From an uncultured Methanotrichaceae archaeon (GTDB lineage Archaea; Halobacteriota; Methanosarcinia; Methanotrichales; Methanotrichaceae), in NCBI GenBank assembly GCA_964633785.1, contig CAZWHG010000005.1, positions 4,440 to 68,439 on the forward strand: a DNA stretch of 64,000 bases. The letters run 5' to 3'. The translations under genes and the position numbers were made by a program. The notes under the pieces were generated by a model, which did no database searches, was not told the origin of the DNA, and worked only from the letters and a program-made list of their open reading frames with translations. Below are positions 10,161 through 15,558 of the stretch, one piece after another; the stretch's first letter is position 1; each line of letters starts with the position of its first letter.

Positions 10161-11600
10161 CTAGCCGCCGTTCTCCAGCACCCTTGCAGCCTGCGCTCCT
10201 GCCTCCAGAATATCCAGGTTCTTGGTGATGAGCTTGGGCTTCTTGGCAAAAGTCTCACGGAAGGCGTTCCCATAAGCCTCGCTGGGCAGACCCAGATTGC
10301 CGGCCTGCATCAAGGCCCCTAGCATGGCCGTATTGGCCGCCTGCGGGGTCCCTCGCTCTGTGGCGATCCGCGTGGCCGGAACGGATATGGCTTGCACGCC
10401 CTCCTGTGCCTGGAACTGGCCTGCCAAAGAGTCGTAGAGAATCACGCCGCCCTTCTTGACGGTGGGCGCAAACTTTTCCAGAGACGGACGGTTGAAGGCC
10501 ACCAGCACATCGGGATGGTCCACCACCGGTGAGCCGATTGGCCGCCCGGAAATGACCACGGTACAATTCGAGGTTCCGCCCCTCTGCTCCGGCCCGTAGT
10601 CGGGATAGTAAGACACATAGCGCCCGCTGCCAAAGCCCGCCTGGGCTAGGGTCAGGCCCATGCTCAGCACTCCCTGTCCTCCAAAGCCGGCAATCTTCAC
10701 GCCCTTGACCACAAACTCCGGATCCTCCCGGAACGAAACGCAGATCCCGCTCTCGCAGCCAAAAATCTTATCCAGTGCACCTTGGGAGAAGTCACTCTCC
10801 GGCCTGGTTATGGGCTCTGCCTCAGCAGATCGGTCCCGGAATCGCTTTAGCGGAAACTCCTTTTCCATCTGCTCATTGACGAACTTGGCTATGGCCTTCG
10901 CATCCATCCTCAGGATAGTGGGACAGGGAGAAAGCAGCTCGACAAAAGCATATCCTTTTTTGTCTCTCTGAATCTCCAGAGCCTTCTTGACTGCTCGGCG
11001 CGCTTTTCTGATATGCTCGATGTCCGAAAGCGATGCCCGCTCGATAAATACCGGCGCTTTTAGTGTATCCAGCAGTTCACAGATGTGAATGGGATAGCCC
11101 TGATCGCAGGCATTGCGTCCGCCTGGCGTGGTGGCCGTGACCTCTCCAATCAAGGTCGTGGGCGCCATCTGCCCACCAGTCATGCCATAGACGCTGTTGT
11201 TGACGAAGAATACGGCCAGCTTCTCGCCTCGGTTGGCAGCCTGAATGGTCTCGTTCAGGCCAATGGAGGCCAGATCACCGTCTCCCTGATAGGAGATGAC
11301 TATTGCATTGTCCTCAGAGCGCGATATGCCTGTAGCTATGGCCGGAGCCCGGCCATGTGCGGCCTGCACGTGACCGCAGTCCAGATAGTAGTAGGCGAAA
11401 ACGGCGCATCCCACCGGACTGATCACGACACACCTATCCTGAATGCCGAGGTCTAACATGGCCTCACCGATGAGCTTATGCAAAATGCCGTGACCACAAC
11501 CGGGACAGTAATGGGTGGCCGTCGGAGCGGCACCACCTTTTCTGGGAAACTGCTCATATATGCCGGGATGCCCCCCGATAATCTTTTCATTTGCTGCCAT
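10161..11600 (-). CDS. 2-oxoacid:ferredoxin oxidoreductase, beta subunit fused to gamma subunit
   Basis: The TPP-binding region is '[41 protein letters not shown]'. The C-terminal half carries gamma-type '[28 protein letters not shown]'. Confidence 0.9.
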
Positions 11601-12645
11601 TTTTTGCCACCTCCCTGATCTTTTCTAAGACTGAATCCAGACCAATCAAATTTCCTCCGTAGCGGCAGACCAGCTCTACCGGCATACAACCACTGGCAAG
11701 ACGGATGTCTTCACGCATCTGTCCGTTGCTCATCTCCACAGAGATGAACTTGCAGCCGCGCTCGGCGAGAGATCGCACCGCTTTTTCAGGGAAGGGGAAG
11801 AGAGTGATGGGTCGGAAGAGGCCTGCCTTGATGCCCTCCTTTCGTGCAGCATCTATTGCAGATCTGGCGATCCTGCTGCTGATGCCGTAGGAGACCAGCA
11901 CGACACCGGCATCTTCCAGCCGATAGCCCTCCCATGCCACTTCGCTCTCTTTTATGCGTTCATACTTCTCCTGCAGCTTGCAGTTGTGCCTCTCCATCTC
12001 GTCGAAGTTGAGCATAATTGAAGTTATCAGATTTCTTCTCGTCTCGGCTCGACCATTCACAGCCCAGGTGGTGTCAATGCTGGGCCGGAGCGCCTCTTTT
12101 GGAAACTCCAGAGGCTCGACCATGTGCCCTAGCACTCCGTCCGCCAAAATCACTACTGGATTTCTATACTTAAAGGCCAGATCGAAACCCTTACCAGTTA
12201 GGTCGCACATCTCCTGCACGCTTGCTGGCGCCAGAACAATGTTATGATAGCAGCCATGCCCACCGCTCTTGCAGGCCTGATTGTAGTCCGACTGCTCCGG
12301 CCCAATGTTGCCTAGACCCGGTCCTGCCCGACAGATATCGACAATTACGCAGGGAAGCTCTGCACCAGCGAGGTATGTTATACCCTCCTGCTTCAGGCTC
12401 ATGCCGGGACCGGAAGATGCCGCAAGCACGCGATGTCCAGCAGAAGCCGCCCCGTAGACCATGTTGATTGCCGCTTCTTCCGATTCCGCCTGCACGAACT
12501 TGCGGCCCAATTTGGGAAAATTGTGAGAGGCTTCATGCAATATCTCGCTGGCGGGAGTGATAGGATAGCCAAAGAAGCAGTCACAACCTGCATAAAGAGC
12601 ACCCACGATCACGGCGCTGTTTCCAGCCACTAATTGAGACGCCAT
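11587..12645 (-). CDS. 2-oxoacid:ferredoxin oxidoreductase, alpha subunit
   Basis: '[10 protein letters not shown]...[31 protein letters not shown]' is typical of POR/VOR/KOR alpha subunits. It overlaps the downstream beta-gamma gene by 14 nt. Confidence 0.9.
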
Positions 12646-12647
12646 TA

Positions 12648-14549
12648 TCAGTTCTCCTCTGCTTTTTTCTCTTTCTGGGGCACATGAACCTCAATGGCCA
12701 GCGGCTCAGGACAAGTGTAATAACATGCACCGCAACCAATGCAGCCGTCACCTGAATAGAGCACATAGTGATAGCCTCGAGAATTCAGCTCTTCACCCAT
12801 CTTTAATACATCTGCGGGACATGCCTCAATACACCGCTCGCATGCCTTGCATTCCAGGGTATTGATAATCGGATAGGGCTTGTCTTTATCCCTGATCTCC
12901 ACCCGCCGGATCTTCCCGCTTATGGTCTTGGGCAGCTCCTCTACGAACTCGATGATTCGCGGGTACTTGTAGGGCGCAGTTACCCTCTTTACGTGGTTCT
13001 GAAGCTCCTTTTTCAACTCATCGGAGCTGGAATAACCGCGGGCCAGAACTATGGTTGCCTTTACCACCTGTCCCCGAATGGTATCAGGCACACCGGTTAT
13101 GGCCACCTCCATCACAGATGGGTGAGACATTAGGGCACTTTCCACTTCAAATGGTCCCACCCGATATCCGGAACTCTTGATCATGTCATCCGTTCGGCCT
13201 ATGAACCAGAAGAATCCATCCTCATCTTGCCAGGCGGTGTCTCCAGTATGGTAGTAATCGTCATGCCAGGTGCTCTTGGTCTTATCCGGATCGGAATGAT
13301 AATCGGTGAAAAGGCCGACGGGCTTTCCCTTGTCCGTCTTGATCACAATTTCGCCCTCTTCGCCCACCTCGCATAATTTGTCGTTCTTGCCCACCAGTAC
13401 AATATCGAATCCCGGAGCAGGCTTTCCCATCGAGCCGGGCTTGGGATTCATCCAGGGATAATTGGCAATGCAGACAACCGTCTCCGTCTGGCCGAATCCT
13501 TCCATGAGCCGCAATCCCGTAGTCTCCAGGAAGCTCTCATACACAGACGGATTGAGCGGCTCTCCTGCCGTGACCGCATATTTTAGCCTGGAGAAGTCGT
13601 ATCTGGACATGTCGCTCTTGATCATGAACCTGAAGATGGTCGGGGGAGCACAGAAGGTTGTCACCCCATATTTACCCATCTCGTCCATCATCTTACCGGC
13701 ATCAAATCGATCATAATCGTAGACGAAGACCGCCGAGCCGGCCAGCCATTGACCGTAGATCTTGCCCCAGGCGCATTTGGCCCATCCCGTATCCGCTACG
13801 GTGTAATGAAGACCATCATCCTCCACATTCTGCCAGTACTTGGCAGTGAGAATATGGCCCAGGGGATAGGTCTGATCGTGTTTGACCAGTTTTGGATATC
13901 CAGTAGTTCCAGAGGTAAAGTATCCAAGGAGGATATCCTCGTTTTTCGTCGCCTGCTCTCCAGTCGGTCGTACAAAATCTGCCGATGCCTCTGCCAGCTC
14001 CTTATTGAAATTGATCCAGCCCTCGCGCACACAATCAGCGCTTCCTACCAGGGCTTTGACCAGAGGAATATTGCCCAGACCCTTGTGGGCCTCATCAAAC
14101 TCGCCCGGAACCCCATTCTCTGCTATGCAAATGATCATCTTCAGATCGCCCTTCTTGATGCGATAAACGAAGTCCTTGGCCTTGAGCATATGCGTAGAAG
14201 GAATGGAGATTGCCCCGATCTTGTTTAAGCCCACCATGCAGACCCAGAACTCCCAGCGGCTCTTGAGGGTAAGCATGACCGTATCCCCTTTTTTCAGTCC
14301 ATATTTAGAAAAGAGATTGGCAGCCTTGTCGCTTTGGATCTTCAGATCTTTGAAGGTGATGATCAACTCTTCACCGTGATCATTGCACCAGACTAAGGCA
14401 CGCTTATCAGGATTTTCTGCGGCATAGGCATCAACCACATCGTAGGCAAAATTGAAGTTCTCGGGAACCAGGATCTTCAGATTTTCTTTAAAATCCTCAT
14501 ATGACTTATAATCGACCCGAGAGACGAACTTAGGCAATAATGACGACAT
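12648..14549 (-). CDS. AMP-forming (medium/branched-chain type) acyl-CoA synthetase fused to a C-terminal 2x[4Fe-4S] ferredoxin (OFOR delta-like) domain
   Basis: The adenylation motifs are '[11 protein letters not shown]', 'GQTE', 'YHTGD' and '[11 protein letters not shown]'. The last ~75 aa read '[12 protein letters not shown]...[12 protein letters not shown]', i.e. two CxxCxxCxxxCP clusters. Confidence 0.9.
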
Positions 14550-14570
14550 TTTTCCTTTCCTCTTTCTCTC

Positions 14571-15125
14571 CTACATGACCACAGCCAGAAGCTTCACCGG
14601 CTTGTCGTTTAGGGCTTGCATGTAATGATCATAAGACGAATCGAAGAATATGGAGTCTCCAACGTTTAGCACTACATCATTGTCATGAATGGTGATCTTT
14701 AGAGACCCCTCGAGCACGTATTCAAACTCCTGGCCCGGATGACTGTAGAATGACGGGCTACCTTTCCTAGGATCGATGGTAACTATAAACGGCTCAGCTT
14801 TTTTATGAGCGAACTTTCTGGCCAGGCTCTGGTAGTGGTATTGCCTTCTGCGCTCCACTTCCACCGCTTCCCCCTTTCGAGTAATGGTGAAGATGCTCAT
14901 CTTGGACTCTTCGCCAGTGAGAAGCAGACCTGTATCAACATTGAGTTTTCGTGCAATGCCGATAAGAATGCTGGCGGGAATGTCCAGCTTTCCATCTTCA
15001 TAGCAGTTGTATGTCCCTACAGGCACATTAAGGTGCTCTGCCATCTCCTCGGACGATACCAGATTTAGCTCCCTCAGCTCACGAAGACGTGAACCTATCT
15101 CATCAAGCCTCTCCTTCATGCTCAT
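14571..15125 (-). CDS. XRE-family HTH plus cupin transcriptional regulator
   Basis: The N-terminus '[32 protein letters not shown]' is of HTH_3 type. The C-terminus '[14 protein letters not shown]...GDSIFFDS..H' is of cupin type. It lies directly upstream of the acyl-CoA synthetase on the same strand. Confidence 0.85.
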
Positions 15126-15558
15126 TCCTCAGCGCATTGTGACTGCCTCACATGCATATTTTAATCTATCTAATCATGAGCGATTTTCTTGCAGATGAAG
15201 CCTAGATTCTGATACTGACCGGTAAAGCATCCTTGACAGGTTCAGCTGCAGGAATAGAAATGTGCATAGGGATCGTGAAGCGGCATGTACGTGGCTACTA
15301 AAAAGCGCTAGTAATTAACTCAACGAATGACTAGGGCTAAATGGACCCTATGCATTCGAATTTCGTGTGATTTTCAGTAACCTTCACACACGACCCGTGA
15401 AGGTTCCCCCACCCAGAAGGACCGGGCTATCTATCGCCTTTGTGAAGAGATTTGCATCCCAATCTCAAGGGCATTATGACACCTAAGCGATTGTCCGCGA
15501 TTGATAGATCTACTGTCGAACAAGTAGAAATATTATGGTTGCAGAGACTATTTAAACA

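Follow-up and report, generated by a model that had tools for sequence, protein, structure and literature searches.

A Macs-type acyl-CoA synthetase fused to a VorC-like ferredoxin domain in a predicted branched-acid salvage operon of Methanotrichaceae

Gene organization of the locus

The window analysed here is a 64,000-nt stretch of DNA from an uncultured Methanotrichaceae archaeon (assembly GCA_964633785.1, contig CAZWHG010000005.1, positions 4,440 to 68,439 of the forward strand), whose genome has a size of 2.67 Mb, is 99.7% complete, and shows a GC content of 50%. On the minus strand, the window carries an operon of four tightly packed genes, which encode an XRE-cupin regulator (184 aa; 14571..15125), an acyl-CoA synthetase fused to a ferredoxin domain (633 aa; 12648-14549), and the two subunits VorB (352 aa; 11587..12645) and VorA (479 aa; 10161..11600) of a predicted 2-oxoisovalerate-type ferredoxin oxidoreductase (VOR). 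VorB corresponds to the alpha subunit and VorA to a fused beta-gamma subunit. The regulator gene ends 21 nt ahead of the synthetase gene, the stop codon of the fusion ends at 12648, 2 nt before the alpha gene begins at 12645, and the alpha and beta-gamma genes overlap by 14 nt. These coordinates agree with an earlier note on this DNA, made from the letters alone, which had described a synthetase frame stopping 2 nt before the alpha gene of a 2-oxoacid:ferredoxin oxidoreductase (OFOR), an overlap of that gene with a beta-gamma fusion gene, and an XRE-cupin regulator directly upstream on the same strand.

The 633-aa open reading frame (ORF) comprises three Pfam domains, namely AMP-binding (PF00501, residues 41-405, E 1e-58), AMP-binding_C (PF13193, residues 468-546, E 1e-22), and a 4Fe-4S dicluster domain (residues ~559-615; Fer4_7 and related Pfam models), and thus contains both the full AMP-forming synthetase and the C-terminal 2x[4Fe-4S] domain that the note had recognized. 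Based on the Pfam domains, the match to a solved structure, and the pocket residues described below, residues 1-556 (12882..14549) are predicted to form an AMP-forming acyl-CoA synthetase of the Macs type, acting on branched or medium-chain acids. Residues 557-633 together with the stop codon (12648..12881) are assigned to VorC, the 2x[4Fe-4S] ferredoxin or delta subunit of the oxidoreductase, on the strength of the Pfam hits, eight cysteines, and identity to stand-alone VorC.

The ferredoxin tail

The tail of the fusion protein is 77 aa long and harbors two CxxCxxCxxxCP motifs, whose eight cysteines are invariant in 13 fused homologs. It is 64-74% identical to the stand-alone VorC of Methanosarcinaceae, in most of which VorC has 79-86 aa, and of Methanobacteria, compared to only ~28% identity to the two POR-type delta subunits of the same genome. 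In an exhaustive search, nearly all relatives of the tail measured 72-126 aa, and the exceptions that were checked turned out to be two delta-alpha fusions (P0252 and P0260), in which a VorC-like ferredoxin domain lies N-terminal to POR_N and PFOR_II. Since the relatives are thus either small stand-alone proteins or joined to an alpha subunit, the kind of ferredoxin is confirmed. The two delta-alpha fusions stem from a representative library at 50% identity, where the synthetase-ferredoxin form is not listed as such, probably being clustered with unfused Macs, and where such fusions are hence uncountable.

By orthology, the tail is the oxidoreductase's own delta subunit, equivalent to the stand-alone VorC encoded between macs and vorB in other methanogens, which bears out the proposal that the fused domain serves as the OFOR delta. 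The operon contains no separate delta ORF, as noted before, and a whole-genome tblastn with the tail as query detected no second VorC-like gene; the next-best matches were 31-40% identical pieces of larger Fe-S proteins. Therefore, the VOR of this archaeon has no other delta gene. Both POR-type operons elsewhere in the genome carry a delta gene of their own. As judged from its sequence, the tail would assemble into VorAB and relay electrons to it.

Structure prediction of the tail alone with AlphaFold2 (AF2) yielded a two-cluster ferredoxin fold (pLDDT 90.9). A structure search with Foldseek returned generic 2x[4Fe-4S] modules (PsaC, FwdF, polyferredoxins; TM ~0.75) and did not single out delta subunits. 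Among solved structures, the best small relative by sequence is a chain of a 2-oxoglutarate oxidoreductase (8ys5_D), found with an E-value of only 5.6e-7 among many generic matches. Such generic similarity would also suit a redox-sensing or electron-input domain acting on the synthetase itself and not on the VOR. We consider this role extremely improbable, as the tail is orthologous to a stand-alone gene that always lies between macs and vorB, VorAB would otherwise be left without the delta subunit that its orthologs encode, and relatives of the tail ferredoxin are fused to the alpha subunit in other lineages.

The synthetase domain

Residues 1-557 match the Methanosarcina acetivorans synthetase Macs (MacsMa; PDB 3ETC; Shah 2009; Meng 2010) with an E-value of 1.4e-285, the identity to this characterised ortholog being 70-75%. 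The Methanosarcina genomes contain one Macs gene each, always within a regulator-macs-vorC-vorB-vorA operon. Sequence comparison thus identifies the synthetase domain as an ortholog of MacsMa, with which it shares the operon position after the XRE-cupin gene and ahead of vorC, the A10 lysine motif, which is invariant among the aligned homologs, and the residues that we take to line the acyl pocket. At the corresponding positions, offset by +2, the fusion protein carries W239, W256, K258, W261, C300, and G353. Five of these are invariant in 58 fused and unfused orthologs, while W239 is a tryptophan in 57 of the 58. The two proteins differ at the C-terminus: MacsMa is a separate protein that ends a few residues after ...EIRDKDQ, the chain in 3ETC stopping two residues past the aligned region without a ferredoxin domain, whereas in Methanotrichaceae the short MacsMa tail is lost and the chain continues straight into VorC. 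The top-scoring model for the synthetase, the staphylococcal MbcS equivalog NCBIfam NF047394, reached 472 bits against its cut-off of 850, so that the protein does not belong to this family.

According to PMC10455477, which cites Meng 2010, the preferred substrate of MacsMa is 2-methylbutyrate, and most other acids are adenylated without formation of the CoA ester. By analogy to this ortholog, the synthetase domain may likewise prefer 2-methylbutyrate. Propionate would be a different main substrate, with isoleucine formed from propionyl-CoA via 2-oxobutyrate instead of from a branched acid. Methanogens are known to assimilate propionate (Eikmanns et al, 1983, as cited in PMC3087415), and Macs forms propionyl-adenylate (PMC10455477). 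However, the thioester step at which substrates other than 2-methylbutyrate mostly fail with MacsMa speaks against propionate, and we regard it as an improbable main substrate. The six presumed pocket residues, all retained here, point in the same direction.

Elsewhere in the genome, contig C17 (24873-31141) bears three tandem acetyl-CoA-synthetase-like genes with ~30% identity to the Macs domain, which are similar to a tandem trio of acetyl-CoA synthetase (ACS) genes reported from Methanosaeta thermophila. The paper on the Methanosaeta ACS enzymes arrives at four AMP-forming ACS genes without mention of the synthetase analysed here. Two other ORFs of ~640 aa with C-terminal Fe-S motifs were discounted as additional synthetase fusions, one being NuoF-like and the other PAPS-reductase-like.

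The oxidoreductase subunits

VorB contains the domains POR_N and PFOR_II and scores 548.5 bits with the NCBIfam VorB model NF005507 (cut-off 399). It shares 64-73% identity with its orthologs in Methanobacteria, which are present in 102 of the 121 genomes of this class. In VorA, TPP_enzyme_C (PF02775, residues 71-221) and the POR gamma domain (PF01558, residues 307-470) occur together in 479 aa, in line with the beta-gamma fusion predicted earlier. Across 26 orthologs, C32, C35, C65, and C226 as well as G106-D107-G108-D109 are invariant; by analogy, the four cysteines would ligate the proximal cluster, and the GDGD stretch would represent the thiamine pyrophosphate (TPP) motif. The proximal cluster of VorA and the two clusters of the tail would together give the usual three-cluster wire.

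By sequence, the oxidoreductase is an ortholog of the anabolic VorABC of Methanothermobacter (MTH703-705; Tersteegen et al, 1997; Kaster et al, 2011). Both systems share the alpha subunit, the beta-gamma fusion, the small two-cluster ferredoxin, and the gene order; in contrast, VorC is a free subunit in Methanothermobacter and the C-terminal domain of the synthetase here. With reference to the work of Tersteegen and colleagues, Kaster et al (2011; PMC3087415) list MTH703-705 as an anabolic 2-oxoisovalerate synthase using isobutyryl-CoA and CO2. Conversion between branched-chain acyl-CoA and 2-oxoacid is consequently the best reading of the activity of the Methanothrix VorAB, by analogy to this enzyme.

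OFORs are reversible, and VORs of the Pyrococcus type are catabolic. The module could in principle run in the opposite direction, with the VOR oxidizing branched 2-oxoacids derived from amino acids and the synthetase operating in reverse to gain ATP from AMP and PPi. Several observations argue against this direction. The hosts are methanogens, with Methanothrix using acetate only, and catabolic archaeal systems employ ADP-forming, not AMP-forming, synthetases. Moreover, VorB belongs to the family of the Methanothermobacter VorB, whose enzyme is listed as anabolic as cited above, and scores only 66 bits with the Pyrococcus-type VOR alpha model (cut-off 646). We judge a catabolic role to be very improbable.

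The remaining OFOR inventory of the genome, located on contigs C26, C65, C1, and C29, comprises a PorCDAB with its own delta subunit and PorA_Arch above the cut-off, a second POR-like gamma-delta-alpha-beta set below the PorA cut-off, a two-subunit 2-oxoacid:acceptor oxidoreductase, and two IORs. On contig C87 (L105:1211-4859, minus strand), iorA (583 aa), iorB (227 aa), and a 431-aa PaaK-like ligase with AMP-binding and AMP-binding_C_2 domains stand in a row. They represent a second, unfused ligase-plus-OFOR unit of this genome, presumably acting on aryl acids. Clusters of iorAB with a phenylacetate-CoA-ligase-like gene follow the same logic as the operon described here, an acid-CoA ligase being encoded together with a 2-oxoacid:ferredoxin oxidoreductase, but they involve another ligase subfamily, an IOR, and no fusion.

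Distribution and origin of the fusion

Of 74 Methanotrichaceae genomes, 71 carry an uninterrupted fused frame covering query residues 1 to ~630; they span 15 genera. When the tail served as the sole query against proteins of 348-1108 aa, 63 clusters were retrieved, all of which combine AMP-binding with the ferredoxin and whose named sources are nearly all Methanothrix-like. As the same uninterrupted frame recurs in these genomes and protein clusters, the fusion is not an artefact of assembly or frameshift. The survey of the fusion that the note had put forward thus shows it to be lineage-wide in Methanotrichaceae. In public databases, the fused proteins are labelled, for example, 'AMP-binding protein' or 'acetyl-CoA synthetase'. 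Loci or single proteins of the Methanothrix-type operon were also encountered in metagenome-assembled genomes labelled Syntrophorhabdus and Sedimentisphaerales (L077, P0061), probably as a result of binning errors.

None of the other groups searched displayed the fusion. A Macs ortholog is encoded in 62 of 67 Methanosarcinaceae genomes, where the match ends near residue 557 if the frame is uninterrupted, and in 115 of 121 Methanobacteria genomes, without an uninterrupted fused frame among the matches listed. The operon itself is shared with these groups. In Methanococcoides orientis, XRE-cupin is followed by Macs (557 aa), an 80-aa two-cluster ferredoxin, VorB, and VorA, and the arrangement regulator, macs (~557-562 aa), ferredoxin, VorB, and VorA was found at nine of nine Methanosarcinaceae loci taken from genomes and at ~30 further named loci. 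The Methanobacteria loci follow the same five-unit order (12/12 and 5/5). Each protein of the unfused operons is 53-75% identical to its counterpart. Thus, the module as such extends well beyond this genome; Methanosarcinaceae and Methanobacteria widely possess the unfused operon, and the covalent link alone is specific for Methanotrichaceae.

Within the phylum sample, close orthologs of VorB are confined to the two Macs-bearing families. VorB is also missing from the four Methanosarcinaceae genomes that lack Macs (G067, G075, G099, G116), a joint absence among related genomes that is to be read as a pattern and not as a statistic.

In a maximum-likelihood tree built on the synthetase domains, with the tail columns excluded, all Methanotrichaceae sequences fall into one clade with a support of 100. 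Four unfused Methanotrichaceae copies of Macs, located away from any VOR (L010:5009-6691, L021:2260-4239, L022:5331-7064, L020:5477-7153), belong to the harundinacea/Methanocrinis group and one other genus. One copy is accompanied by its own XRE-cupin gene, and the remaining three are solitary. We considered these copies as the ancestral state and rejected this possibility, since they nest inside the fused clade beside fused copies of their own genera, as later duplicates. The simplest history compatible with the tree is therefore one fusion followed by two duplications without the tail. Neighbouring, tightly coupled macs and vorC genes would have been joined in a single event at the base of Methanotrichaceae.

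The fusion junction is gapless and almost invariant (...EIR[DE]KD[KR]PYPxIN.LECKAC...). The fusion lacks three stretches found in the split genes, namely 2-10 residues at the end of Macs, the 28-498-nt spacer that separates macs and vorC in Methanosarcinaceae, and the 8-13-residue leader of VorC. Some Methanobacteria show a stop codon followed at once by an in-frame ATG: at two loci (L119, L123), the macs stop directly precedes the vorC start (...RDMKRAGEQ*MEPYPVIN...), and in several others macs and vorC share one frame with a single stop in between. This stop-then-ATG arrangement lies very close to the fused state.

The very small mutational step required raises the question of whether the fusion is neutral, that is, whether a stop codon between two coupled genes of the same function was lost harmlessly, with neither channelling nor kinetic gain. 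In favor of neutrality, separate genes serve all other methanogen lineages searched, and acyl-CoAs are stable intermediates that can diffuse. Nevertheless, the fusion has been retained over 15 genera, down to an identity of 72%, with its junction intact, and both the Macs tail and the VorC leader have been removed to leave almost no linker, which suggests a constrained geometry rather than loose read-through. Neither retention nor linker loss proves a benefit, and we regard a neutral fusion as possible, though on the whole rather unlikely.

Proposed function of the operon

Because the tail is assigned as the delta subunit, the synthetase as a Macs ortholog, and the oxidoreductase as an ortholog of the anabolic VorABC, conversion of an acid via its acyl-CoA to a 2-oxoacid is the best reading of the operon. 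This route had already been proposed in the earlier note, and 2-methylbutyrate to isoleucine now emerges as its leading candidate. Overall, we think it probable that the four-gene operon salvages branched short-chain fatty acids into precursors of branched-chain amino acids. In the first step, the synthetase would convert a branched acid, ATP, and CoA to the acyl-CoA, 2-methylbutyrate being the best guess and isobutyrate or isovalerate possible substrates. VorAB, supplied with electrons from reduced ferredoxin via both clusters of the fused delta domain, would then carboxylate the acyl-CoA reductively to the 2-oxoacid, from which a class-IV aminotransferase would produce isoleucine (or valine or leucine). 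An IlvE-family aminotransferase is encoded in the genome. In Methanothrix, cleavage of acetyl-CoA directly yields reduced ferredoxin (PMC3426162). Furthermore, the requirement of Methanobrevibacter ruminantium for 2-methylbutyrate is attributed to reductive carboxylation to isoleucine in its genome paper (PMC2812497, citing Robinson and Allison, 1969).

Three points weigh against this interpretation. First, the predicted substrate is transferred from an ortholog of 70-75% identity, and the two enzymes suggest different acids, as the VOR ortholog is named for isobutyryl-CoA and 2-oxoisovalerate while Macs prefers 2-methylbutyrate. Second, in the AF2 model of the full-length protein, the N-domain of the synthetase is confident, but the ferredoxin part and residues 557-567 are of low confidence. 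Third, the genome encodes a de novo route with ilvD, ilvB, and three LeuA/CimA homologs, so that the module would act as a salvage pathway beside this route, not as its replacement, and would be dispensable in principle. The list of MacsMa residues behind the pocket comparison, W237, W254, K256, W259, C298, and G351, is reportedly that given in the abstract of Meng 2010. The fit of all six residue types at the predicted positions serves as a check on this list.

The fusion further suggests that the synthetase forms part of the OFOR complex and may channel its product, as the note had supposed. One synthetase would be tethered to each VOR protomer. Given that almost no linker remains between the mobile C-terminal domain of the synthetase and the docked delta subunit, the acyl-CoA might be released beside the VOR active site. 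More speculatively, the two enzymes could thus form an 'acid carboxylase', driven by ATP and ferredoxin, for channelling branched acids to 2-oxoacids when these acids are scarce, as they are for Methanothrix. We offer this extension tentatively and consider it unlikely in its full form.

Precedents exist for the pathway, for the two enzyme families, and for the logic of the operon; what is new is that a CoA ligase is covalently linked to an OFOR delta subunit. In delta-alpha fused OFORs, such as the two mentioned above, and in single-chain PFORs, the delta module is likewise covalently joined to a polypeptide of the system. However, the partner in these cases is a subunit of the OFOR, whereas in Methanotrichaceae the partner enzyme catalyses the step that precedes the OFOR reaction. 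Our literature searches on the fusion or the Macs-VOR operon found no describing paper, although a remark in the two primary Macs papers is possible.

Gene fusions of this type are strong natural evidence that two proteins cooperate. The fusion ties Macs, an orphan enzyme whose physiological role had been left open, to the anabolic VOR of methanogens and lends support to a model, at the level of genes, of how branched fermentation acids enter isoleucine, valine, and leucine, an uptake known for a long time. Methanothrix is a dominant source of methane in digesters, wetlands, and rice paddies, habitats in which branched acids occur, and a hard-wired salvage module could cut its biosynthetic costs. 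In addition, the fused protein offers a natural system in which to ask whether an acyl-CoA synthetase tethered to an OFOR channels its product.

Regulator and promoter region

The regulator combines an XRE-family helix-turn-helix (HTH_19/HTH_3; PF12844/PF01381) with a cupin domain (Cupin_2; PF07883). With the PuuR equivalog model it reached only 19.6 bits, below the cut-off of 211. Orthologs with 53-68% identity immediately precede macs in Methanotrichaceae, Methanosarcinaceae, and Methanobacteria. As the note had suggested, the cupin regulator may respond to the acid. The regulator ORF opens with an ATG at 15125; since the ortholog alignments start at residue 3 and a GAGG is found just upstream, the ATG at 15119 is probably the true start.

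Upstream of the regulator gene, a TATA-like box (TTAAAATAT; 15156..15164, minus strand) is kept in Methanothrix loci and may serve as the operon promoter. A palindrome of the form TGTGA-N5-TCACA (15138..15152, no strand assigned) begins 12 nt after the start of this box and is the single match to the pattern in the window, with 0.07 expected by chance. Within the genus Methanothrix, the palindrome is maintained at a fixed spacing to the TATA-like box with at most two mismatches, and other genera of the family differ at this position. The palindrome is thus a candidate operator, through which the XRE-cupin protein might regulate its own operon.

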